From Octopus vulgaris (taxonomy: Eukaryota), in assembly GCA_951406725.2 (NCBI GenBank), contig OX597840.1, forward strand, positions 36,208,001-36,272,000: 64,000 bases of DNA, read 5' to 3'. Shown here piece by piece: positions 747 to 64,000 of this stretch. How positions within the stretch are numbered: the first letter of the stretch is position 1; the number at the start of each line of letters is the position of its first letter. The translations under genes were made by a program, and so were the position numbers. The notes under the pieces were generated by a model that was given only the letters and a program-made list of their open reading frames with translations, made no database searches and was not told where the DNA came from.

Positions 747-32747
<32,001 letters not shown>

Positions 32748-33817: not shown

Positions 33818-36800
33818 AGGGAGAACAAAAACAAAAAGTTAAAAGAAGGGAAAAAAGCGCACTGACCACTACTGAAAGACGGTATGCAGATGTGGTGCGC
33901 GGAAACCCAACAGGTGGCCAGCTTCACCCAGATGTGAGAAGGGCGGCAGCTGAACAGCAGTCTTTTTTGTGCATGGCACAAAAAATTGTTCAGCAGCTGA
34001 CCTGGCTACAAGCACAAAGCTGGAACTACCACCACATAAGGCCACCTCCAACAGATGCAGGATGGCCACCACAGACACCAACACCAACACACACACCACA
34101 AAAATATTTCTACTGAATGTAGGAGGGCTGCTGCGCAGAAACTGTAAAAAGAAAATTTCATTCCTGAGAGACCTTGTGACATGCAATCAAGCTATATGCA
34201 TGGCACTCACAGAAACGCATCTTGAACCCGATATAGGTGATGCAGAAATACACATGCCGCAATATGCAGTCATACGCACAGATAGAAAAGGGAGGAGCCA
34301 TGGTGGAGTTGCAATGTACATCCGAGATGACCTCACGCCCCAGGTCCTGCTGTCATATTCAAACTCAGTATGTGAAACTCAAATTGTACACATAAGACAA
34401 CTGAATATCGTCATATGCACTACATATCGCCCACCAGACGCCCCAAAACACTCAGGCATGTTTGAAGACTGCCTAACAAAAATAGGAGAAGTCCTCACCA
34501 ACCTTGAACAGCACAACAGTGTATTCTTCATGGGTGACTTTAACCTCCCCAATGTGGAATGGCCTGGGGGGCAGATGCTCCCAGGGATGACACACCATCA
34601 GCAGGCACAGGTGGAGTCCCTGCTCCATCTCACAAATACCTCTTTCATGGAGCAAATAGTTCTGCAACCAACAAGGGCAAATAACATACTGGATCTCTGC
34701 TTCACAAACAATATGGATATTATCCATAATGTTAATGTGATGCCAACAATGATCTCGGATCACAACATAATAGAGCTGTCTATGTATGGAGCAAAAGCCC
34801 CCGCAGACACACAGCCTATACGAAGCACCCACCATCTCTCCAACTTAAACTTTCATAAAGCCAACTGGAAGTCGATTGAGAAAGAGATCCTCAAACAGGA
34901 TTGGCCTGAATGTCTCTCCACACCGGACATAAACATGAAACACAAACACTTCATGTCCATAATACAAGCCATATGTGACAAATATGTCCCAATGTGCAGG
35001 GCCAGCACACACAAGAACAAAAACAGGATCCCTAGAGAAAGGAGGATTCTTATGAGACGACGGACAAGGATTGCAAACCGCCTGAGCAAGCACACCAAAA
35101 GTGGTGAGAAGTCTCGGCTCGAAAGAATGCTAATGGAAACTGAGAAAAGTCTACATCAGTCCCATGAAAAGGAGAGAGCAGATAAAGAAGCTTGGGTAAT
35201 AGAAAATATAAAATCAAACCCTAAAGCTTTCTTTAAGTTTGCCAGTGCACCAGAGAATAGGACCTCTCTTCCAAAAAGATGGCTCTCTCACAGGAAATCC
35301 CACGAGGATAAGTGAAATACTGAACGAACAGTTCCAAAGTGTGTTCACTACACCTCTAGGACACAGGCAAGTAAACAACCCAGAAGAATTCTTTGCCACT
35401 TTACCAGCGGCCAAAGAGACAAAAATTGAGTACATCAACATCGAAGAAGATGATATCACACTAGCCATTGATGAGATAGACACAAACTCAGCTGCTGGAC
35501 CTGATGGATTCCCAGCAATCCTTCTCAAATCGTGCAAACGAGCCCTTGCAAAACCGCTACAGCTTCTTTTTCAGAGCTTTCTTGCAAGTGGTAAGCTCCC
35601 AGTCAAACTGAAAGAGGGGGTAATATGCCCTATCCATAAGGGAGGTAGCAGAGCAGATGCTAAAAATTATAGGCCTATCTCTCTGACCTCACACATCAGC
35701 AAAGTCATGGAACGAATAGTCCATAAGAAACTAATCATGTTCCTTGAAGAAAATGACTTACTGTCTGACACCCAGCATGGATTTCGACCAGGTAGAGGCT
35801 GCCTAACACAGCTCCTGCAACACTATGACTGGGTGTTGAAACAGCTACTAAATGGCTCAAATGTGGATGTAATATATCTTGACTTTGCAAAAGCCTTTGA
35901 TAAAGTCGACCATGGTATGATCTGTCACAAACTGCGTGGTCTCGGCATAGGCGGGAAACTTGGAGAGTGGCTGCACAACTTCCTAAAAGACAGAAAACAG
36001 GCAGTTCTGAGCAATGGAGCCACCTCCAGGGAAACGCAAATAACAAGCGGTGTCCCACAGGGCACTGTCTTAGGGCCACTGATGTTCATAGTGGCCCTTT
36101 CAGACATGCCTTCAGTTGCTACGATGACCACCCTTGCTAGCTATGCAGATGACACAAAAGTCTCCCACGCAATACAAAACCCTGAAAATATTGCGCATCT
36201 GCAACATGAGCTGGACACAATATACAGGTGGGCTGAGGACAACAACATGCAGTTTAATGCAGGTAAGTTCCAGGCCCTGCGCTACTGGCACACAAAGGTA
36301 AATGACGTGAAGACTGGATACACTGGCCCAGGAAGAATTGCAATCCCTGAGTCAAAATCAGTGCGTGACCTGGGCATTGACATGAGCAATGATGCATCTT
36401 TCCAAATGCATATTGCTAATCTGGTGATAAAATGCAGACGGCTAGCTGGATGGATTCTCCGAACTTTCAGAACAAGAGAGAAGGAGACACTGATGGTCCT
36501 ATGGAAAACATTTGTCCTCAGCCGCTTGGACTACTGCTCCCAACTTTGGTCACCACACAATATAAAACAAACAGCAGAACTCGAAGCAACTCAGAGAAGC
36601 TACACAAAGAAAATCGTCTCAATTCAAAATGTCAGCTACTGGGAAAGACTGAAGGTATTAAACCTCTTCTCCCTGGAGCGGAGGCGGGAGAGATATGCAG
36701 TGATATACATCTGGAAAATCCTGGAGGGTCTTGTCCCAAACTTTGGCATTCAAAGTTACTCCAACCGCAGAACGGGGCGCCGCTGCGTGGTGCCAAGGAT

Positions 36801-37143
36801 TCCAACATCACCATCAAAATACAGGTCCAGATACTGCAACAGCTTGGGTTTCAGAGGACCACAGCTCTTTAACATCCTCCCTAAATGCCTGAGAGACTTA
36901 CATGGTGTGGATGTGGGTTTCTTTAAAACTAAACTGGATCTCTTCTTGTTGGGAGTCCCAGATGAACCTACCTCACGACAGGAGACACGGATGCGGGCAG
37001 CAGCATCGAACTCCCTTGTTGATCAAGTGCCACGTATCAGAGGTGGATTCACAAACTAGTGTAGCTCATTCAGCGGTGGTGCCCCAGCATGGCCGCGGCC
37101 TTCGGGCTAAAACATTTTTAAGGATTTTTAAGGATTTAAGGAT
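33818..37143 (+). mobile_element. Young CR1/L2-group LINE, 5'-truncated in ORF1, with near-intact ORF2 (APE endonuclease + RT)
   Basis: ORF1 tail ends at 34116. ORF2 from ATG 34062 has APE motifs (LTETHL, GGVAMY, YRPP, MGDFNLP, ILDL, SDHN) and RT motifs (NYRPISL, QHGFRPGR, YLDFAKAFD, GVPQGTVLGP, YADD) to 37059. One frameshift near 35243. Short 3' UTR with (taaggattt)n tail. Confidence 0.95.
34062..37059 (+). pseudogene. LINE ORF2 (endonuclease-reverse transcriptase) broken by a single frameshift
   Basis: ORFs 33969-35315 and 35239-37059 overlap in different frames around KAFFKFA / VHQRIGPL. Confidence 0.9.
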
Positions 37144-50059: not shown

Positions 50060-50226
50060 TTAATAATTGACAAATGCTTGTGGAATCCTTTCTTCATTGT
50101 TGACAATCCTTTCACATTCCATAAAAAAATCATAAGTGATTCTGTCGCTGACAACAGAATCATTCTTGTAATCTTCATGATTTCTAACAAACTGCCTTGT
50201 CCATTGGGCTAATGTCATTATCTTTC
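50060..50226 (-). CDS. GCLC: Gene A terminal coding exon (GKIMTLAQWTRQFVRNHEDYKNDSVVSD...FVNY*)
   Basis: ttattttatAG acceptor; TAA at 50062-50060; homologous to [28 protein letters not shown]. Confidence 0.94.
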
Positions 50227-53200
50227 CTATAAAATAAATTGAAATAATAAATGGTTTATTATTTATTTTCTATGGAAATTCTTTGCTGCATTCGGTAACA
50301 ATATCCTATCCCCATGATCTAAGGCACAAATAGGTAAAGCCTGATCTGTTTCTTTGCTTTATTTGTTTTAGTGGTAATAATTGTTTCAAAAGTCTTATTT
50401 AAAACTAAACTGTGGCAGAATATTTTCATCACAGGACAGGATCTGGAACGAATACTTCACACACATGCATATACACACATTATCCTTCATATTAGTCTGT
50501 AGTATACGGAGTGTGAAGATTTACTAACAATAAGTGTTACTGGGTTAAAATACAGTTTAGCATTATATTTGATAATTGAAAAAGAAACTAGCATTATTGG
50601 AGGGTAAATGTTATATATTTAAGATAAAATTTGTTTAATATTGATGAAAACAAATGAATCGTCTCACCTGCCGCTTTGTCTGAGATATATTTCAGGTATT
50701 GCATTATTTGTGGCCTTTTACTGGCGTCATAGTCAAATTGATCAAGGTATTTGTGTATGAGAGGAATTAAACCAGGGAAATCATCCTGTTGATAATAGAA
50801 TCAAAATAATTGCAAATAGTTTGAGTTTTCTGTCCCGTAGTTGTTTGAGATTGCCCGACTGGTTATAAAAGTTATTAATATTTTTGGTTGAAAGGACAAT
50901 TACAAAAATACACAGAGAAATGGAAAGAATATTAACATAGGTGCAAACATGGCTGTGTGGTAAGAAACTTGCTTCCCAACCACACTGTTCTGGGTTCAGC
51001 TTCACTGTGTGGCACCTTGAGCAAGTGTCTTCTACTACAGCCTCAGGACAATCATAGCCTTTGAGTGGATTTGGTTGATGGAAACATAAAGAAGCCCATC
51101 ATGTGTGTGTGTGTGTTTGTATGTATGTATGTATGTATTTACATGTGTGTCTGTATTTTTCCCCACCACCACTGCTTGACAACTGATGGTGGTTTGTTTA
51201 TGTCCCCATGACTTAGCAGTTCACCAAAACAGACCTATAGAATAAGTACTAGGCTTACAAAGAATAAGTCCTGAGGTCGACTTCCTCAACTAAAAATCCC
51301 TTTAAGGCTGTGCTCCAGCATGGCTCCAGTCAAATGACTGAAATGTGTAAAAGAATAGAATATTCCCTTTTACATTAAAAATACTTCATCTGTATGTTCA
51401 TATGGTGTAATGCTGCATTCATGTACAAACATATGGACCATGCACAGTGGACCATCTACAAACAAAACTACACATAATTACTCAAATTATGCAGAACATA
51501 TGCAGAACACTACAGAACACTATGCAGCCAATAAGGCAGTCAAATTTCCCCCTGCACCATCATCAATACTCATCAAAACAATCAGTAATCTCCTCTTCAT
51601 GTTTTTAAAAAATAGTTGCTTCATCTAGATCAGTGGTTCTCAACCAGAATCCAAATAGCATTTAGGGGTCTACATGGCCCTTGTGGGTCCATGTAAGATT
51701 CCGTTGTACAAGAAATGAAATTGATTATTATTCTATAATACACAAAATATTTTAGCAATTTCCGTTATGCAATTCCTAATAATATTTAATTATAAAAATA
51801 TAATAGGATATTTTTTAAACATCAAATGGATACGAGGGTCCAGTTGAGCAAAATAAAGGATCAAAAGGGGATCCATGGGCAGAAAATGGTTGGGAACCAT
51901 TGATCTAGATTATACTTGTTTACTGATTTCACCTTTTTTCTGCTCACTCACACATACATCTCATCACATACACATTTCATGCGCATCGACATGCATGCAT
52001 TCACAAACATTTAGCAGAAAGACAGGTACCAAGCAAACACACATTTGTTACAATGCACATGTATCTTTGATCTTTTATCTGTTTCAGTCATTAGACTGCA
52101 GCCATGCTGGGGCACTACCTTGAAGAATGTTTAGTCAAATGAATGGAATGGATCGACCCCAGTACATTTTAAAAAAAAGTTTTGTACTTATTCTATCAAT
52201 CTCTTTTGTCAAACTGTTAAGTTATGATGATGTAAACACACCAACACCATATATATATGACGGGCTTCTTTCAGTTTCCATCTACCAAATCCATGCACAA
52301 GGACATGGTTGGCCCAAGGCTATAGTAGAAGACATTCGCTACTCAGTGAAACTGAGCCTGGAAACATGTGGTTGAAAAACAAGCTTTTTACCATTCAAAT
52401 TTACTATGATATAGAAGACACCAGCCAACTTCAGCTGCTTTTGTCCAGAAGCTCAGAAATAATTGAATTGGTTCACCGTACCAACTCATAGGAAGAGACA
52501 ACACTGACCCACAGACTACACTGCATTGACTCACAGACATAAAAGCACTGCACTATGTACAAGTCACTCAGACATTTGGCAGCACATAACTGACTTACAT
52601 ACATAAGTGTGTTCTCCAGTCTACAGATTGTTTTTTTCCTAATACTTTTGAATTGTACTTTGACCTGTATTCAACCGTTATTCTAGTTTCTCCTGTGTAT
52701 ACATACACACACACACATGCATGCATGTATAGACAAAGGAGTGCTGAAAAGTTCTTCGCTTAAAGAATATTGCAAAAGGCTTGGTTGATGGCCCAACCTT
52801 TCGAGCTCTTTAACAGGGCTTAGACTATATGAAGGACCGCTGCCAATAAGTGTGTGAATCTGAGAGGGGAATATTTCGAATAAAATAATTTACTGATCCA
52901 CCTGTATTTTCTTTTACCAAAAACCAGGAAGTCTTCAGCATTATCTCATATACATACATCATACATGGATGCATGAGTATGTATGTATATACATACTTTA
53001 TTACTTGTGACTACTGTACTTTACAGAAAAACTCTAGAAACATTCACGTTGACAAATTATTGGATTCAAACTTTGGCACAATTATATTTGATAATTGAAA
53101 AAGAAACTAGCATTATTGGAGGGTAAATGTTGTATATTTAAGATAAAATTTGTTTAATATTGATGAAAACAAATGAATCGTCTCACCTGCTGCTTTGTCT

Positions 53201-55194
53201 GAGATATATTTCAGGTATTGCATTATTTGTAGCCTTTTACTGGCGTCATAATCAAATTGATCAAGGTATTTGTGTATGAGAGGAATTAAACCAGGGAAAT
53301 CATCCTGTTGATAATAGAATCAAAATAATTGCAAATAGCAAGAATTGGCAAGAAAAACCCTTACCAATTCCTATTTGATATCTATCCCTTTCAACAAAGC
53401 ATGATTTTTAGAAGTGATATCAACACTTTCTGTCATTTATATTCTTTTAGAATCTAAAATGTGTTAGTGGGCCATTTTGCTTAATGGTAGATTACTCAGC
53501 CGGTATCTGAGGGGGTACAGGTTCAACTTCTATAGCTGTCTGCTGGCAACTTTTATAGGTGCAGGCATGGCTGTGAGGTAAGAATCTTGCTTCTCAACCA
53601 CATGGTTCCAGGTTCAGTCCCACTGAATAGCACTTTGGGCAATCTTCTTCTATTATAACCTCGGCCAACCAAAGATTTGTGAGGGGATTTGGTTGATGGA
53701 AACTGAAAGAAACCCGTTGTGTGTGTGTGTGTGTGTGTGTGTGCGTTCATGTGCTCATGAGTCTGTGTTTGTCCCCCACCATCGCTTGACAACTGGTACT
53801 GGTATGTTTATGTCCCGTAACATAGTGGTTTGGCAAAAGAGACTGATAGAATAAGTAATAGGCTTACAAAGAATAAGTCCTGGGGTCAATTTCTTCCATT
53901 AAAACCCTTTAAAACGGTGCTCCAGCATGGCCACAGTCAAATGACTGAAACAAGAATTCACGAACTTTCGAGGGAACATAAAATAATCTCTTTTTTGGGC
54001 TACAGAAGATCTCAAACCACGCATAAAGCTAAAAAAAAAAAAATGCCTGTAAATATTAGGTTTAAAGAAAAAATATTTGGATTGAAAATGTCAAATGCAG
54101 CCTTTGACTTTTCTGTTCAAAAGGTTTTTCTGCCTGATATTTGCAGGCCATTATTTAAGGTTTTCTGTGTGATTTAGAATTTATTAAAAATATTTTTTAC
54201 CTTTCCATTCATGATTTCATCTAAAGTCATCAAAGTGTAAATATCATTTGTTAGTTCACAATTAGCAAATTCTAATTGACAGAAAATAAAACAATTATAG
54301 ATTTAGTACAATAAATACTGTAAACACATCAGCTTATATAGGGTAACAGGCAAATAACTGTTTCTGTTTACAATGCAAAACCCTAATCTTAGAATGTTTA
54401 AACAAGGTGTGAGAGAAAAACTTCCCATGTTTTATGGTCAATGTTGTGCTTCTTGTAATTAGTTTGGTAGGTTGTAATGAGGTTTTCATGTAGCTAATGT
54501 GTTATTACTCTTCTTTAGTTATTATCATGCATTTGCTGTTCAAACGTTGATCAAAAACTAAATCACCCGTGACCCATTGGATCACCTATAGTTCAAGGTA
54601 CCTAGAAAATCACATATCTTAGTAACCTATGGTCCGATTTACATGAAACTTGTTTTATTTCATATTCACGTGAGCATCCTCAATATCTGATTCCTGATCC
54701 CTCTTGCTTCTCTCTCTTTCTCTTTGTTCCACAAGATGCTCAGCCCTTGCTTTATCAGTCTCATTGATCTTTCTATTCACATACCAGTCTTGACCTTGGG
54801 TAAATATTTTGTAAATGACCCGTTTGTACTTTCATTTGAAAAACGTATAATCGGCAAATTTATCATAAACATTTTGCAATGAGAAGGGGAGGTTGGCTGA
54901 ATTTGAAATGAAATACATATGGCCTTGGCAAACATGATATAGAAAGAACTGGGGAAATCCTAGATTCATCTACTAAGTCGCATTTGAATAATAATAACTA
55001 AGCTGTTGATTCAAGAGAGAGAGAGCAAGTAAACTGTTGATTCATGCACAGCAAAATGAAGAAAGGAATAATATTTGGGGAAACTATTTAAAATATACAA
55101 CAGATTCTGTGCACAGACCACAAACTAAGTTTAGTCCCCACATAGCTTGATGGGCTTAGAAGAAAAGTTGTATATTTAGCTATCATTATTATTA

Positions 55195-55233
<39 letters not shown>

Positions 55234-58200
55234 AATACTAAATTAATCTGTGTGTGTGTGGTCCCACCAGTGCTTGACAACCGATGCTGGTGTGTTTACA
55301 CCCCTGTAACTTAGTGGATCGTCAAAAGAGACCGACAGAATAAGTACTGAGGTCAATACATTCGACTAAAAATTCTTCAAGGTGGCACCAAAGTATAATT
55401 AATGAATGAAGCAGGTAAATATATCTTTATAGCCAGGAGTAGCTGTGTTAAGAAGCTTGCTTCCCTACCACATGGTTTCAGGTTCAGCCCCACGTGGTGG
55501 TACCTTGAGCAAGTGTCTTCTAATATGGCCTTGGGCCAACCAAAGCTTTGTGAGTGGATTTGGTAGACGGAAACTGAAAGAAGCCCATTGTATCATCATC
55601 ATTGTTTAACGTCAGTTCTCCATGCTAGCATGGGTTATATGCATGTATATATATATGTATTTGTGTATCTGTCCCCCCTGCCACCATCGTTTGACAACCA
55701 ACATTGGTGTGTTTACATCTCCATAAATTAGCAGTTCAGCAAAATAGACAAATAGATTAAGTACTAGGCTTACAAAGAATAAGTCCTGCGGTCAGTTTGT
55801 TTGACTAAAGGCAGTGCTCCAGCATGGTTGCAGTCAAATGACTGAAACAAGTAAAAGAATAAATGAATGTGTGTGTGTGTGTGTGTAAGTGCAGGCATTG
55901 ATGCGTGGTAAAAAGTTTTCTTCCCAACCACATGGTTCCATGTTTAGTCTCACTGTGTGACACCTGGGGAAAATGTCTACTAGAGGCAGACGGAAGCTGA
56001 AAGAATACTTGTGCGTATAAATTATATATATTTAGTTTGTGGCATATTTATATATATGTCAAAGGGGACATAACTAATTCTTTCCCTCCTCCTTTTTCCA
56101 TTTAGGCTTGCCATTCCATGTTTTGAACCCACTTTCATCTTACCTTTTCTCATGGTTTCTCTTGTTCTGTTTCCCGATTTGTAACCTGTAAAGGCTGTGT
56201 GTTCACAGCCTGACGATTACTTGAAGACACTTGCCATGTTTTAAACTTGCCTAGCTAAGATCTTCAATGTATAAAACTATTAGTATAGCTATATACTGTG
56301 TATTCTTTTACTTTTTCAGTTATTTTGACTGCAGCCATGCTGGAGCACTGCATTTAGTCAAGCAAATCAACCCCAGGACTTACTATTTTGTAAGCCTAGT
56401 ACTTATTCTTTCGGTCTCTTTTGCCATTCCACTAAGTTATGGGGATGCAAACGCACCAGCATCAGTTATTAAGTGATGTCGAGGGGATCAATCACAGACA
56501 TACAAACACACACACACACCCATACACACACATATGGCATTTTAGTTAAGTTTGCTTCTTTCCAGTCATGTACATAAACAACAATATATATTTCCTAAAC
56601 AATCACAATCTTTAATAAAAGTTAAAATTACATTTTCATTATCCTCAAAATTTCCAATAAATTTAGTTCTTACCTTTTTGGACATCTTTTCTGAAGTGAA
56701 ACTTTTCTTTATTAATGGCATCCCGCTTTTGTGCTGATGTGAAGTTTTCATCAACCTATGGGGTGAAATTGTAAGAAATAGGAATTTGTATATAAAAGTT
56801 AGGAGAGGTGAGAATATTTAATATGGTTTATATACTCCTCATGAAATAATTCTATCAATTGGATATGAATTTCAGCTGCATGAACACTCTACATTATACT
56901 CCTCTGTATTGAATTATTATGTAGACTGTTAGCCAAGTCCATAAGAGGAACTTATTGTGATAGCCACACAATTCTTTGAATCCATATCTTCTATTAGAAA
57001 TTTATACATACATATGTATGTATGTATGTGTATGTGTGTATATGTATGTATGTGTATGTGTGTGTGTATGTATGTATGTATGTATGTATGTATGTATGTA
57101 TGTATGTATGTATGTATGTTATTTAGTTTTATTTCAAGATTTCTTGCCAAAAGAGAAAGAGCCAGTTTCTAACCTAGATCCAAGGTTCCTTCATTGGAAT
57201 TTCAACATCAACAGGGTATTTTTGTATGTAATATTTATGTATATGTGCAAATTTGTATGTTTTATGTATGTATTCTCATGAATATAGTTGTATATATGTA
57301 TATATATATTTAAATATTCTGTTGTGTCTGGGGAGAGTCATTTTCTTTTTGTGCCTTATAATATAACACACTCACCAGCAAAATTTCAACTTTTTCTTAT
57401 TTTTATTTTTCTAAAATTTTCATTGTGTCTTGCAACTTTTTCAATAGTTTTGACTCTGTCCATTATTTACGCTGTGTTCCCTTTTGTTTGTTTGTGTGCA
57501 TGTGTGTGGGTCAGTGTGTGTGTGCCTATACATGCATGCATGCATGTACATATGTATGTATGTGTGTGTTTGCATGTGTATGTATGTATATATGTGTGTG
57601 TATGCATATGTATGTGTGTGCATCTGTATGTACGTATCCTGCATATTTATGTGCTTGCATGTCCGTGTTTATGTATTTTCTATGCATGTGTGTGTGAGCA
57701 TGTGTTTGTATATGTATGCACCTCTGTCTCCTAGTGTGTGCATGTGTGTGTTATGCAACTATGTACCATGTTTGTATGTATGGATGTGCATCTTTATATG
57801 TGTGGATCTGTGTCTGTTCTTATAGCCTATGTACCTATCCGTCTGCATATTGATCTGTTTATTTTCATATTTATATGCTTACATACAGAAAAAAAGTGGG
57901 GGACATACACACACACACACACTCACACACACACATACATACATTATCTATGTAACAGTCCACTAACTATTCTACTCTACCTGTGTAAACTGTGGGTATG
58001 ATATTTACTATATATATTTCCTATTTAGTCTTGGGGAGATTTCATTTATAAGGACGTACTCCCGTATTTGTCTGATGTTGGGTCTTTTGGGTGCTTGGAT
58101 AAGATATGGATGTCAAGTTGACCCAAGTTACCTCCATGGTGATCTTTGGCATGTTGATAGAGTATAGAGGACTGTTTTCTGTCGTCATATTGTCTTAGAT

Positions 58201-61200
58201 GTTCATTTATTCATTTCGCAATGCTCCTAGACATCTCCCCTATGTACGTCATGTCCATGTCCTTACAAGCACCTTCTATGCATCTTATGCTGTAAACTAC
58301 ATTTTGAGTTCTACAGTTAATACCAGGGCTAATCCTACATAACATGCAGTTATCATTGGTGCATGTGGTATTCTTACAGGGGTACATCCTACATAGTTGT
58401 GATCTGATGGAGTTCCCTGCCTTTTCAACAATTTTAATGTTCACAGCTTTTCTAAATCTACAGGCTAGCTCTCCATGGGCTGTGGCCTCTACAAACATCA
58501 CTCCTTGATATTTGTCGGTTTTGTAACATTTATTTGCCCTCTTATATACATAAATAGATGTGTGTATTTTCCCTTTGTTAATAATTAACATGGTAAAAAT
58601 ATATAAATAGTTAGCCGGGTAACAAAAACTCACACAAGTAAAAAGGTAGTAACTCCTTGTTTTTAAAGGTAGAAACTTCAGGTTTACGTGAAGTTTTTTG
58701 TATAATATATATAAATAAATAAATGGAGTTAAACACAGGTGTTATTCAAATTCTTTTACTTCCAACACATGTTTCGGAGATATCACTGGTATTATTCCAA
58801 AGGAATAAAATGGTGTAAAACAATGTAATCTTTTCTTCAGGGAAGTGAAGAAATGAAACTCGTCCATAAGACATTTTAACAGAAAACATGTGTTGGAAGC
58901 AAAAGAATTTGAATAAAACCTGTGTTTAACTCCATTTAAAATCAAAATAAGCAACAAGGATATGCATTACCGCTGGATATCCTTGTTGCTTATTTTGATT
59001 TCAATCATCTTATTTTGAAATTGTATGGATAATACCATACTAAATTCTGGTGCCTCAACCTAAGTACCATATTCGTCTGTATCTGTCTTTGTCCCTCCAC
59101 CAACGCTTGACAACTGGTGTTGCTGTGTTTTCATCCCTGTAACTTAGTGGTTTGCTAAAAGAGACAATTAGATAAGTACCAGGCTTACAAAGAGTAAGTC
59201 CTGGGGTTGATTTGTTCGACTAAAGGCAGTGCTCCAGCATAGCCACAGTCAAATGACTGAAACAAAAGAAGAAGTGAGTGTGTGTTGTGGCGAGAGTCAT
59301 TGAAACCCCTTTGGGATTGGAAGAATGGACAAAGGGAGATCAAATAGATCTTGGTAAATTAAGTAAGAAGCACTCTCATGTATACGTGTGCGTATCTTTA
59401 TGTTTGTGTTTGTTCTTGCCTCCACAAATGATTTGAACCATTGTTGGTTTGTTTTCATCCCAATAAATTTACAGTTTGATAAAAGAGTCAGACAGTAAAA
59501 GTATCAGACATAAAAACTAAGTTCTAGAGTTGATTCGTTCCACTATAACTCTTTGAAGTGGTCTCTCAGTATGGCTGTAGTCCAATGATTGAAACAAGTA
59601 AAAGATAAATATAAAAAGATAGAGTTTACATTAAAAGTGCTATATTTTGTAAAACCTATCGGTTTAGATATGCTTAACCATTTGCCATACCTTATATATC
59701 TATGGTTAGGTCTCTAGCAGGAATATTTGCAGAGATCTTAGCATCAACTCTTTCCCTAGGAATCCAACCCAAATCACTGTGTAGAAAGGTAAAGAGGGGA
59801 ACAAGATTTTGTAAAAGGCTGATGACATTGGCAAACAACTGACCAGTCAAGTTTGTGGTAGAAATCACAGTATCTAAATATAAAGGCAACTAATATGAAT
59901 GGGGTTCAACAAATGATTGACGACACGAGCAAAGAACTGACCACTCAAATCTCAGCTTATATTTATCTTACAGATAAAAAAGTCCAATGCTTATTATATA
60001 GAAATAAACATTTTAATATAAGAAATCAATATTTACCTTTGTTATTGGGATCAAAAGGTTTAGCTTGAGAGTAATTATAGCTCGGTTAAGAAGAATAAGG
60101 AATACAACAAGAGCAGCATTTTCAAAGTCAGTCAACTGATCCTGGAAATACATTAAAAAAATAGTGTCAAAATTTATTTAGTGTTCAGGCTAACCATGAC
60201 AGTTTGCATAAAAGGAAAAGAAGCCACAATATCTCATTCAAAAATAAAAGCATTTTCAGAAATAAGAAAATTTCAACCAGATTATGGCTGGGAGATAACA
60301 ATTTACTCAAGGCAGTTGACCTCAGTTTCCAACATGGCCTCAAAATGGCTCTGGAACGTGGCACATGCATTCTTTGGCCATCTTCCTCATGTTAGCTTCC
60401 AGTTCAGCCTTGTCTTACAAGCAGAATGGTTAGTGTCTTCTTCAATCATGCCCTACACATGGGATTACAATTGGGGGAAATAAGGGGCCAAAAATTGGAG
60501 CTGGTGAAGTTTAAGAAATTCTCCAACAACCACTTCTGACTCTGGAATCGAATCCTGCAGATACACATATGGGCTTCTAGTAATAACCATCTTCAGCCAA
60601 GGTTTGACCAGTCTCCAGCAGCTTTACATAGCCATCTGAATTCAACTTAAGGCACTGTTTATCGTTATTGGAGGAATTTCAATGTACAGTTAGTTGCTCC
60701 AGCTTGACCATAGTCCAATGACTGATACCATTGAAAGTATACACCAAATTCTGCCTCAAAAATATCGGACAACCACAAACTATTGGAAGACAATTTCTCC
60801 ATCTATCTTTAAGGAGGATTGAACTCAAAGCCATATGGTTGAAGAGCAAACTCACCATCCACATGATTATTCCTAAACTATGTCCGTCCATTGGAGTGAC
60901 AAGGACTGTGTAGCCATCCTTATGGATGATCAATGACTTGTGTAGTGATTTTGTTGAAAGAGAAGAATTGTGCATCGTCAGCCTCATTTTATCGTCTATG
61001 ACCATCTTCAACTTCAATCATGTAGCAAGACCAGCTCAAGACGACCGGGGATGAAGAGATGCAGTGGAGGCCCAAGATGTATTATTAGCCCAATTTTGTT
61101 GAAACTGTGAGGGGTGGGTGCTGAAAGTTCTTGGTTTTAAGGGTATTGCAAAATGCTTTGTTGGAGGCCCAAACTTGCAAGTTCTTTTACAGGGCTTAGA

Positions 61201-61488
61201 AAAACTAAAGGACCACTGAAATTAGTGTTTGAATCTGAGAGGGGAATATGATGATTAAAATCATAATTAATTGATCCTCATGTATCTTCTTTTACCCAAA
61301 GTCAGGAACTTTTCAGCAACATTTCTTATAAAGGAACTGAATATCTATGTGATGAAACAAAGAAATATCTAATACAAAAGCAGTTTCTAATAAAATGTTA
61401 CCTCCATTGTTCTGAATTCCACTTTCCATCCAGATTTCTCATCAGGGAGCTTCAATTTTAAGCTGTGTCCATTACTATTAAAGATAGC
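50060..61488 (-). CDS. GCLC: Gene A: divergent GCLC-like gene, 3' part (last 6 coding exons; 5' part lies beyond window end)
   Basis: Exons 61488-61402, 60141-60037, 56755-56674, 54271-54201, [53304-53187 or 50785-50668] and 50226-50060 splice in frame to 630 nt ending in TAA. Motifs GWKVEFRTME-DQLTDFENAA, VDEN...AQKRDA, FPGLIP and HEDYKNDSVVSD. Confidence 0.93.
50668..50785 (-). CDS. GCLC: Gene A penultimate exon, copy 2 (...DASKRPQIMQYLKYISDKAA)
   Basis: Same splice sites as copy 1; 3 substitutions (2 synonymous, 1 Leu/Pro). Confidence 0.8.
50938..51358 (+). mobile_element. tRNA-derived SINE, full-length copy
   Basis: Same family. Confidence 0.85.
51631..51902. mobile_element. hAT (Charlie-like) MITE
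   Basis: TIRs cagtggttctcaacc / ggttgggaaccattg with a perfect 8-bp TSD atctagat on both sides. Confidence 0.88.
52738..52942 (+). mobile_element. Mariner-derived MITE (copy 1)
   Basis: TIR gtgctgaaaagttc...gaagtcttcagca; internal KDR..KCVNLRGEY.E transposase C-terminus. Confidence 0.75.
53187..53304 (-). CDS. GCLC: Gene A penultimate exon, copy 1 (DDFPGLIPLIHKYLDQFDYDASKRLQIMQYLKYISDKAA)
   Basis: caacAG acceptor, GTGAGA donor, 118 nt, phase 0 to 1; duplicate of 50668-50785. Confidence 0.8.
53557..53955 (+). mobile_element. tRNA-derived SINE, full-length copy
   Basis: Same head, body and tail as 61868-62243. Confidence 0.88.
54201..54271 (-). CDS. GCLC: Gene A exon (FANCELTNDIYTLMTLDEIMNGK)
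   Basis: ttttctgtcaattAG acceptor, GTAAAA donor, 71 nt, phase 1 to 0; homologous to YTLMSIDTIINGK. Confidence 0.9.
56674..56755 (-). CDS. GCLC: Gene A exon (VDENFTSAQKRDAINKEKFHFRKDVQK)
   Basis: ccccatAG acceptor, GTAAGA donor, 82 nt, phase 0 to 1. Confidence 0.93.
57315..58510 (-). mobile_element. PLE 3' fragment (GIY-YIG plus microsatellite-rich 3' UTR)
   Basis: IKIVEKAG..CTNDNCMLC..NCRTQNVVYSIRC..YIGEMSRS; the UTR part matches 880-1315 in inverse orientation. Confidence 0.75.
58758..58846 (-). ncRNA. Type-I hammerhead ribozyme motif
   Basis: acttcc-CTGAAGA-[long stem II]-GAAAC-ATGT-GTT-ggaagt with a perfect 6-bp helix I. Confidence 0.55.
60037..60141 (-). CDS. GCLC: Gene A exon (DQLTDFENAALVVFLILLNRAIITLKLNLLIPITK)
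   Basis: atttccAG acceptor, GTAAAT donor, 105 nt; homologous to VQLTDFENSAYVVFVVLLTR. Confidence 0.95.
61108..61320 (+). mobile_element. Mariner-derived MITE (copy 2)
   Basis: Same TIRs and internal sequence as 52738-52942. Confidence 0.75.
61402..61488 (-). CDS. GCLC: Gene A exon (AIFNSNGHSLKLKLPDEKSGWKVEFRTME)
   Basis: tttccttttAG acceptor, GTAACA donor, 87 nt; homologous to NIQSTNWQTMRFKPPP...GWRVEFRPME. Confidence 0.92.
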
Positions 61489-61825
61489 CTAAAAGGAAAT
61501 GTATAACGACCCTGGTCATGAATGACAATTTAATAAAATAAAGTAAATTTACTGAAACAACAATATTCTAAGCAACACATCCCAAACTGAGGAGACCTTT
61601 GAAGACTGTAATATACATTTGTTATCTAATGTCACTAGCTTTAATGTTTATATTTAGCCACAGGCGTGGCTGTGTGTTAAGAAGTTTGCATCCCAAACAC
61701 ATTGTTCCAGGTTTAGACCCACTGAATGGCACCTTGAGCAAGTGTCTTCTGCTATAGCCTTGGGCCAATCAAAGCCTTGTGAGTGGATATTGTAGATGGA
61801 AACTGAAAGTAGCCCATTGTATGTA

Positions 61826-61867
<42 letters not shown>

Positions 61868-61869
<2 letters not shown>

Positions 61870-62001
61870 CGCAGGAGTGGCTGTGTGGTAAGTAGCTTGC
61901 TTACCAACCACATGGTTCTGTGTTCAGTCCCACTGCATGGCACCTTGGGTAAGTGTCTTCTACTATAGCCTTGGGCAGACCAAAGCCTTGTGAGTGGAAT
62001 C

Positions 62002-62041
<40 letters not shown>

Positions 62042-62243
62042 TTGTGTGTTGGTGTTTATCCCCCCCCCCCCCGTCACTTGACAATCGATGTTGCTGTGTT
62101 TACATCCCCGTAACTAAGTGGTTCGGCAAAAGTGACCAACAGAATAAGTACTAGGCTTACAAAGAATAAGTCCTGGGTTTGATTTGTTGGACTAAAGGTG
62201 GTGCTCCAGCATGGCTGCAGTCAAATTACAAACAAATAAAAGA
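61868..62243 (+). mobile_element. tRNA-derived SINE of the major octopus-type family (representative full copy)
   Basis: Head ggcgcaggagtggctgtgtggtaag...gttcagtccc (A/B-box-like), internal microsatellite, tail ggtgctccagcatggc..cagtcaaat. Further copies at about 4053-4330, 17418-17850, 28455-28765, 40795-41210(-), 41655-41850, 45300-45478, 45715-45930, 50938-51358, 52070-52395(-), 53557-53955, 55432-55862, 56305-56500(-), 59080-59270 and 62300-62510. Confidence 0.88.
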
Positions 62244-62899
62244 ATATATATATATAATATATATATGTACGTATACACATATATGTATATAAATGGATGT
62301 GTGTGTCTGTCTTCCTCCACCACTGCTTGACAACCAGTGTTGGTGTATTTACATCCCCGTAACTTAGCATTACTTGACAACAGAGCCCAAAATTATAAGT
62401 ACCAGGCTTTAAAAGAAATAATAAATACTAGAGTTGATTTGTTCTACTAAAAATTGTTCAAGGTGATACCCCAGCATGGTCGGAGTCAAATGACTGAAAC
62501 AAGTAAAAGATATATTGTTTTGCATTGTAATAATGCGTTTCCTCTTAATCTAACACACCTTCTTTCTACTGTTTCCCAGCCTATTCTTACTCACTGTACA
62601 CTAAAAAGCTTATAAAGTGGAATATATTGTAATCTGTCTTTATTTCTTATTTAATGTAACCTCATTTCATTTCTGTAACAGAGGATGTAACAAAATTACT
62701 TCTTAGGCAATGAAAAATTCAAAAGTTCTTCATTGTTCACTATTTTTTGCTTAGTCTTTCAAATATCAGGAAATAAGATTTTTTTCCTCTTTTCTAATAT
62801 TGTATCAAAATAGTGTGACGATTAACCCTTTAATCTTATCTCTATTAATAAGTATTCATGTTTGAAAAAATACACTCTTATGATAAGATTTACCCCTAA

Positions 62900-64000
62900 C
62901 ATAGACTAGTTATTAGTGACTTTAGACTCAAAGCCAGAAAGATGCCAAAAAGCAGACCAATCTGGAAAAGAAGGACTTGGAAGCTGAAGAACCCTTCACG
63001 TGGTCAAAGATTTAGGGATATTCTTTCTGAAAATTTTGATGAGTGGGAGGAGGGGGGAGCTACAGTCCTGTGACATAGAAGGCAGCTGGGAATTCCTGTG
63101 AGACAGCTTGCTGAGCACCACAGACCAAATCTGTGGCTGGTTCAAAGTCCCTTCCAGGCCTGGGATAACATTGTGGTGGGACAATACTGTAGACAGAGCC
63201 ATTAGAGCAAAGAAACAGGCCTGGAAGAGCTGGGGTAGCAAAGGTAGCAAGGGACTGTAGCAGGTATCCAGAAGGGAAGCTAGGAGACAGCTATATATAT
63301 ATAGCTAAGGGAGTAGCAGAAAACAAGAAGTTTGCCGAGTAGCAGAAAACAAGAAGTTTGCCAATATTCAGTGATATAAGGACCAAAGAACTGAAGTATG
63401 TGTGAGAGAAAACCATGATGTCATATGAGAGAAAAGTGTCCCCATGGATGATGGTGCCCTTGCATTTAATGATTCTGCAAAGAAAGATGCTTGGAGATGC
63501 CATTATGAAAGACTGCTGAATGTGTAGAATGAATTGGAGGAGAGTATGCCAAAGGTTGACCCAATTGAGGGACCAGCTACCCGAATTGACAGTATCCTGG
63601 TGGATAAAGCAATTAAGGATATGAAGACAGGGAAAGCACCTGGTCTATCAGAAATCATTGCTGAGATGCTTAAAATATCGGGTGGTATGGGTTATAGTCA
63701 TGTCACCCACATCGTAAATCAGGTAGTTCATGAAGGAGTTGTACCCAATAACTGCTGTAACAGCACCATAGTCAACTGCTGCAAAGGTAAAGGTGATGAT
63801 TTAAATAGAAATGACTATAAGGGTATTAATTATTGGATCAGGTGATAAAAGTTACAGAGAGAATCATAGCCCAACTAGTTACGGAGAGTGTTAGCCTAGA
63901 TGAGATGCAGTTTGGTTTTGTGCCAGGCAGAAGCACCACTGATGCTATATTCCTGGCAGGAGAAATATCTAGCCAAAAATAAACCTCTGTATTTGGCTTT
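62900..64000 (+). mobile_element. RTE LINE fragment (runs off window)
   Basis: KAIKDMKTGKAPG and MQFGFVPGRSTTDAIF; colinear with 18840-19900. Confidence 0.88.

Follow-up and report, generated by a model that had tools for sequence, protein, structure and literature searches.

A possible amide ligase with changed donor and acceptor sites among the divergent glutamate-cysteine ligase paralogs of Octopus vulgaris

Glutamate-cysteine ligase (GCLC; yeast Gsh1, structure 3IG5, EC 6.3.2.2, Pfam PF03074) is among the most conserved of animal enzymes, with an active site that is nearly constant over the eukaryotes. Here residues are given by yeast numbers, which were transferred through a HMMER alignment between the canonical octopus enzyme and its yeast counterpart 3IG5. 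We take R196, R205, Y97, M258, M262 and C266 to have roles at the cysteine site, and in T. brucei the change of one arginine is said to weaken the binding of glutamate. In yeast GCL, as tabulated in PMC5613772 (Table 3), glutamate is contacted by Y362, E52 and R472, the Mg ligands are E50, E52, E96, E103 and E470, and K451 binds ADP. The T. brucei residue, which matches R373 of Leishmania, influences glutamate binding according to PMC5613772, and by the offset of 60 that is seen at M322/Q328/Q332 Leishmania R373 would be R313 of yeast.

The fold and the metal-site design are also those of YbdK, PafA (Pup ligase), GmaS and 1-naphthylamine GS, which resemble the octopus protein studied here, that of gene A, in these respects (Z 10-28), while they are prokaryotic and only 6-15% identical to it. 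Judging from the entry titles, we take it that in these proteins the fold has been reused for new amines or for a peptide-bound donor, and that all of them activate the gamma-carboxyl of glutamate, which gene A may not do. For the gamma-glutamylhistamine synthetase of Aplysia we know of no gene. This enzyme (EC 6.3.2.18; Stein and Weinreich 1982) is recorded in PMC9547800, where it represents a molluscan activity that joins glutamate to an aromatic amine in an ATP-dependent amide bond. It differs from gene A in being defined by activity and in needing the glutamate site that gene A has apparently lost.

The window, that is the whole stretch of 64,000 nucleotides analysed here, is C27:36208001-36272000 of the O. 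vulgaris assembly. In the spliced model, the 3' part of gene A occupies 50060..64000 on the minus strand, and exons 1-10 lie past the window end on the same strand (C27:36273707-36291385), with E50 and E52 in exon 1/2, E96 and E103 in exon 3, R313A in exon 8 and R361G/Y362F in exon 9. Exon 11, treated below, is followed on the minus strand by exon 12 (60037..60141), exon 13 (56674..56755), exon 14 (54201..54271), two copies of exon 15 (53187..53304 and 50668..50785) and exon 16 with the stop codon (50060..50226). The protein resembles GCLC/Gsh1 in fold, in Pfam family (414 bits) and in having 16 exons. It is 49.7% identical to the octopus canonical GCLC, with a length of 607 aa against 649 aa, and is without Cys554.

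The two exon 15 copies stem from a tandem duplication of 258 nt that is 98% identical, with splice sites on both copies and 115 of the 118 exon nucleotides the same. Each of the O. sinensis models contains a single copy: P0002 stops after the first, and the full-length P0014 takes the second. The duplication is therefore common to O. vulgaris and O. sinensis. Intron 1 of gene A (C27:36291236, minus strand) has a GC donor in place of the GT of the other seven genes. At lower positions in the window lies the tandem neighbour, gene B, with exons 1-8 at 747..32747 on the minus strand and exons 9-16 before the window start; it retains W445, R313 and R361. Between A and B, at 33954-37056 on the plus strand, overlapping long frames of 453 and 615 aa look by eye like a non-LTR retrotransposon.

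Exon 11 of the 16 exons of gene A (61402..61488, minus strand), read from 61488 to 61402, is 87 nt long, with acceptor TTTTAG, donor GTAACA and phase 0/0. Its translation is AIFNSNGHSLKLKLPDEKSGWKVEFRTME, where the canonical octopus counterpart is NIQSTNWQSLRFKPP...GWRVEFRPME. An earlier note on this exon had described the replacement of a conserved Trp by Gly with VEFR kept. The spliced model agrees: the exon carries W445G, R449K and R468K, and retains K451, E470 and R472. The yeast number W445, which the note had given approximately, is also correct by the alignment to 3IG5, and the placement of this Trp at the cysteine site is borne out by the bond of 2.7 A between its indole N and the cysteine carboxyl O in yeast GCL (PMC5613772, Table 3). 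On its own, exon 11 matches Pfam GCS with E 1.1e-4 and 22.1 bits, below the 25-bit cut-off, and single-exon queries gave no useful match among the PDB sequences; with full-length queries the sole PDB match is yeast GCL.

The Gly codon GGA stands at 61468..61470 (minus strand; codon position counted along exon 11). It is two base changes away from TGG, which is found in the canonical gene and in the paralogs B, C, E, F and G, the codon in D being ACA. For comparison we used a canonical set of 107 proteins (P0025 and 106 others, from the best 120 of 599 matches minus 13 paralog rows) and a diverse set of 149 representatives at 50% identity (the best 150 of 4032 minus one octopus paralog). The residue is Trp in 107/107 of the former, from the best 120 of 599 matches, and Trp or Tyr in all 147 of the latter in which the position is filled (149 aligned, two gaps; best 150 of 4032). 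The orthologs of gene A in O. sinensis and O. bimaculoides have the identical Gly, so W445G is no assembly error. Gene conversion as a source of the change was considered and rejected, since the exons of gene A are at most 90% identical to those of any paralog.

Over the whole protein, gene A retains D49, E50, E52, E96, E103, Q268, Q272, K451, E470 and R472, and is changed by W445G, R313A, R361G, Y362F, R416K, R196Y, R205A, Y97S/C, M258K, M262V, G263S/C and C266V. The metal ligands E50, E52, E96, E103 and E470 are all present in gene A of O. vulgaris and O. sinensis; the O. bimaculoides model is without exons 1 and 3, so that E50, E96 and E103 are outside it. Among the nucleotide and phosphoryl residues, K451, R472 and Q272 are kept, and Lys takes the place of R449 and of R468, a residue seldom seen at either position (1/147 each among the best 150 of 4032 representatives). 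By contrast, the alpha-carboxylate contacts to glutamate fail through Y362F and R313A, together with R361G, in all three Octopus species, and the cysteine site fails through the change of W445, R196, R205, Y97, M258, M262 and C266. Eight residues (W445, R313, R361, R196, R205, M258, M262 and C266) that are each the same in 107/107 canonical proteins from the best 120 of 599 matches are all changed in gene A. In the diverse set (best 150 of 4032) R361 is Arg in 148/148 and R313 is Arg in 144/147, while Y362F is less unusual (11/148) and R205 is looser (109/142). Counted by function, the metal, nucleotide and phosphoryl contacts are kept 8/8 and the substrate-carboxylate contacts 0/3 (Fisher p 0.006, for groups that were picked after the data had been seen and with D49 a backbone contact). 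Because gene A fails both the glutamate-site and the cysteine-site features, it should not, as judged from its residues, be filed as a glutamate-cysteine ligase.

The large cavity for a bulky, for example aromatic, acceptor that the earlier note drew from W445G is not borne out in that form: near W445, bulk is added by R196Y, F197Y and Q441F. That reading also presupposes glutamate as the donor, and R313 and R361 are gone in gene A alone. Gene A gains Arg at 315 and Lys at 258, which might replace the lost contacts or supply contacts to a new acid.

The comparison with the other copies separates what belongs to gene A from what belongs to its relatives. Paralogs B-G and an Argonauta hians protein (GAB1605628.1, 'GCLC-like') lie on the same branch as gene A; in them too R196, R205 and C266 are gone, the absence extending to all paralogs, and R468 is Lys. 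Unlike gene A, they keep R313, R361, R416 and G263: R313A and R361G occur in A only, among seven paralogs and Argonauta, as do R416K and G263S/C, and the loss of W445 is common to A and D alone. Pocket residues do, then, diversify between the copies, as the earlier note had proposed to check. Its reading of the Arg-to-Lys changes as continued selection on ATP chemistry in gene A, on the other hand, has to be given up: R468K is present in 7/7 O. vulgaris paralogs and in Argonauta and R449K in 6/7 paralogs, so both are old features of the paralog clade and say nothing about gene A specifically. Of the canonical-invariant columns gene A keeps 79/116, the fewest, against 86-91 in the other paralogs.

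A Pfam search of the genome gave 49 exon matches among 78 candidates, from which spliced models were made for one canonical GCLC, intact on C4, and for seven divergent paralogs, all of them complete and all on C27. Genes A and B are in the window, C is at 23.9 Mb, and D-G are at 13.35-13.59 Mb; exon 11 used as a query across the genome finds seven places, one per paralog. The canonical gene and all seven paralogs have 16 exons, and the exon lengths and phases of the paralogs match the canonical ones, save at the uncertain canonical 2/3 and 13/14 junctions. A quick tree, which covers 37 of the 124 sequences, has no squid or cuttlefish row and carries no clade test, puts the 15 paralog rows, with Argonauta, on one branch side (SH-aLRT 100) and splits the paralogs together with the octopus canonical gene from the other animals (SH-aLRT 99). 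Both the exon structure and the tree position mark gene A as a descendant of GCLC. The matches listed and the rows clustered at 50% identity, which make a weak search, contain no divergent paralog clade outside octopods, decapods included, and the matches listed contain no divergent paralog in gastropods. A genome search for the glutathione synthetase family gave no match, and its controls gave none either. In the literature covered, which includes few subscription journals and leaves the supplements of cephalopod genome papers outside, no description of octopod GCLC paralogs was found.

We now consider whether gene A is intact. In the assembly its exon 6 (C27:36279970-36280029) has 60 nt and so exceeds the exon 6 of each of the other seven genes by one base, with six A where the orthologs have five, and the resulting frameshift leads to a stop three codons on; the public O. 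vulgaris model P0015 begins after the frameshift and has 412 aa. The O. sinensis ortholog (XP_029652703.1) is complete at 607 aa and in frame at exon 6, and the O. bimaculoides ortholog also reads in frame through it. In contigs from three of four runs (X1, X6 and X2, with three study codes and two organism codes) the intron of 1,336 nt is skipped and exon 5 runs straight into an exon 6 of 59 nt, while run X7 is without coverage at this junction; in run X11 exon 7 is joined to exon 8, and the sequence matches throughout. The runs were taken by guess as RNA, with contig joins at splice sites. At one site in exon 5, all four runs X1, X2, X6 and X7 agree with O. sinensis, and they are therefore possibly not from the assembled species. 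The DNA runs X18-X20, with an intron difference of about 1% from the assembly, leave the run of A uncovered (the adjacent repeat is skipped). With the O. sinensis-type base in the one group of runs and the gap over the run of A in the other, the extra A in the assembled individual may be either a homopolymer assembly slip or a real null allele. Apart from it, gene A differs from O. sinensis in only 6 of 606 residues, one of which comes from the choice of exon 15 copy. The earlier note had held that a stop or frameshift in the 5' half, or the loss of the metal-binding glutamates there, would speak against a working enzyme: the frameshift is in the assembly, though not in the transcripts and orthologs, and the glutamates are all present.

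By Nei-Gojobori, dN/dS is 0.35 between A and B (bootstrap 0.27-0.46) and 0.33-0.44 between A and all six paralogs, so gene A is not decaying. This purifying selection upholds the earlier note where it saw no decay. On the branch of gene A itself dN/dS is 0.35-0.56 (15 triplets), higher than the 0.21-0.33 of the pairs that do not involve A, and this rise is explained by relaxation as well as by adaptation. Between O. sinensis and O. bimaculoides, gene A differs at 27/495 sites (5.5%), with residues 1-50 and 464-489 dropped where the O. bimaculoides model is seemingly mis-annotated; the canonical gene differs at 23/628 (3.7%), C at 59/606 (9.7%) and F at 63/606, the last count including one doubtful segment. 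These rates suggest a fast phase in the history of gene A followed by firm constraint. The new pocket residues of gene A are common to the three species, which is not significant at a divergence of 5.5%. The predicted structure of P0014 has a pLDDT of 89.4 and matches yeast GCL 3IG5 with a Foldseek TM of 0.88 (VIA Z 45.1, rmsd 1.9 A over 592 residues), a likeness of overall fold, since the input alignment of mostly canonical proteins makes the model blind to small pocket changes.

From the residues, fold, exon structure, splicing and constraint described above we propose a model of the activity, substrates and pocket of gene A. The retained core is the part that the GCL fold requires for phosphorylating a carboxylate and for the attack of an amine on it, and the lost groups are those by which the far ends of glutamate and cysteine are recognised. 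The loss of the residues that grip glutamate and cysteine, with the metal and ATP core kept, makes it likely that donor and acceptor have both been altered, and our leading reading, which falls somewhat short of an even chance, is that gene A encodes an ATP-dependent amide ligase with a changed donor acid and a changed acceptor amine. In this model, Mg-ATP would be bound by E50, E103, E470 and K451, and R472 with the metal at E52/E96 would orient the donor carboxylate for phosphorylation to the acyl phosphate. The acceptor amine, placed by E96, would attack it and so give the amide. The donor is expected to have a free amino group (E52 is kept) and an alpha-carboxylate that is absent or blocked (R313A, R361G and Y362F); GABA-like acids or an N-terminal glutamate would be examples. 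For the acceptor we expect a molecule held without the contacts to the cysteine carboxylate and thiol (W445G, R196Y, R205A, Y97S/C and C266V).

It is also conceivable that the donor is still glutamate, which gene A would activate and move to an amine or amino acid that is bulky and perhaps aromatic, as in the Aplysia activity (EC 6.3.2.18). W445G removes the bond to the cysteine carboxyl, two of the three tabulated contacts to glutamate (E52 and R472) remain, the gained R315 might replace R313, and molluscan gamma-glutamylhistamine synthetase activity is recorded (PMC9547800, PMC4472778). However, R313A, R361G and Y362F jointly remove the alpha-carboxylate contacts in gene A only, while the recorded activity is from a gastropod and, among the matches listed, all members of the paralog clade come from octopods. 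Since B-G keep R313 and R361, this reading suits them better than gene A, for which we consider it improbable. If, instead, gene A were an ordinary and somewhat relaxed glutamate-cysteine ligase that adds glutathione capacity, the likeness in fold, Pfam family and 16-exon structure would be explained, and GCL is described as having a broad acceptor tolerance (PMC10741565); but the change of all eight residues that are each 107/107 in canonical proteins (best 120 of 599), with the intact canonical gene present on C4, makes this scarcely credible.

A more serious rival, although still unlikely, is that gene A encodes a retained pseudoenzyme, which folds and binds Mg-ATP with no ligation and serves as a regulator, a scaffold or an abundant structural protein. 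Near-invariant residues are gone from both of its substrate sites, no other paralog retains so few canonical-invariant columns or shows so high a branch dN/dS, and the loss of a glutamate-site arginine would also match the look of a dead enzyme. There are precedents: lengsin is a dead protein of the glutamine-synthetase fold that was recruited, and enzymes have been recruited as lens crystallins of cephalopods. Yet a dead copy would be expected to shed some metal ligands, while gene A keeps the five metal glutamates with K451 and R472, the pattern of 8/8 against 0/3 noted above. Decay of gene A into a pseudogene, be it only in the assembled individual or species, would account for the frameshift and stop in exon 6, the 412-aa model and the GC donor after exon 1. 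With the 59-nt exon 6 in the X1, X6 and X2 contigs, both orthologs in frame, only six other differences in 606 residues from O. sinensis and dN/dS far below 1, we hold this to be highly improbable, and the marks of a pseudogene (a fixed disabling mutation, lost constraint, the lack of a spliced transcript) are not found.

Returning to the amide ligase with changed donor and acceptor, a GCLC copy in octopods has become a family with gene-by-gene pocket differences, in which gene A goes furthest, the glutamate site included. If active, gene A would be a natural re-specification of both substrates on the GCL fold, and would offer a way to those octopus small molecules that lack a known enzyme. 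It is possible, though on balance rather doubtful, that its donor has switched from glutamate and that together with its six sisters it makes up an octopod toolkit for ribosome-free amide synthesis. Adenochrome, a peptide of octopus that binds iron and is made of glycine and thiohistidine-dopa adducts (2:1), has a biosynthesis described in PMC7504153 as not well clarified; a link of gene A or its paralogs to it is a guess that we think very unlikely to be right. Conjugates of GABA or of glutamyl-amines are other candidate products, to be taken as leads only.

Some further observations concern the paralogs. We take it that the human equivalent of Cys554 helps the activation by the modifier subunit. 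In each of the paralogs this canonical-invariant residue (exon 15) has been replaced, by Pro, Leu or Arg, and the C-terminal tail is shortened; given the role assumed for the human residue the paralogs may be free of modifier-subunit control. In the exon 11 of paralog D (C27:13378118-13378204, plus strand), the most divergent one with 64-74% identity to the other copies, W445 has been lost separately, to Thr, and the same is seen in O. sinensis P0367. Exon 1 of paralog G (C27:13592569-13592718, minus strand) has Lys (AAG) at E50, where the O. sinensis and O. bimaculoides models have Glu, which is either a null allele or an error. Near paralog B in sequence are 3'-only pieces at C28:20820461-20821133 (two exons) and C9:9406-13115 (five exons), which are partial duplicates or assembly leftovers. 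Finally, at C27:13.40-13.59 Mb, E and F are 98% identical in exon 11, E and G are 98% identical in exon 10, and F and G are 99-100% identical in exons 15-16, an exon-sized near-identity that suggests gene conversion among E, F and G.
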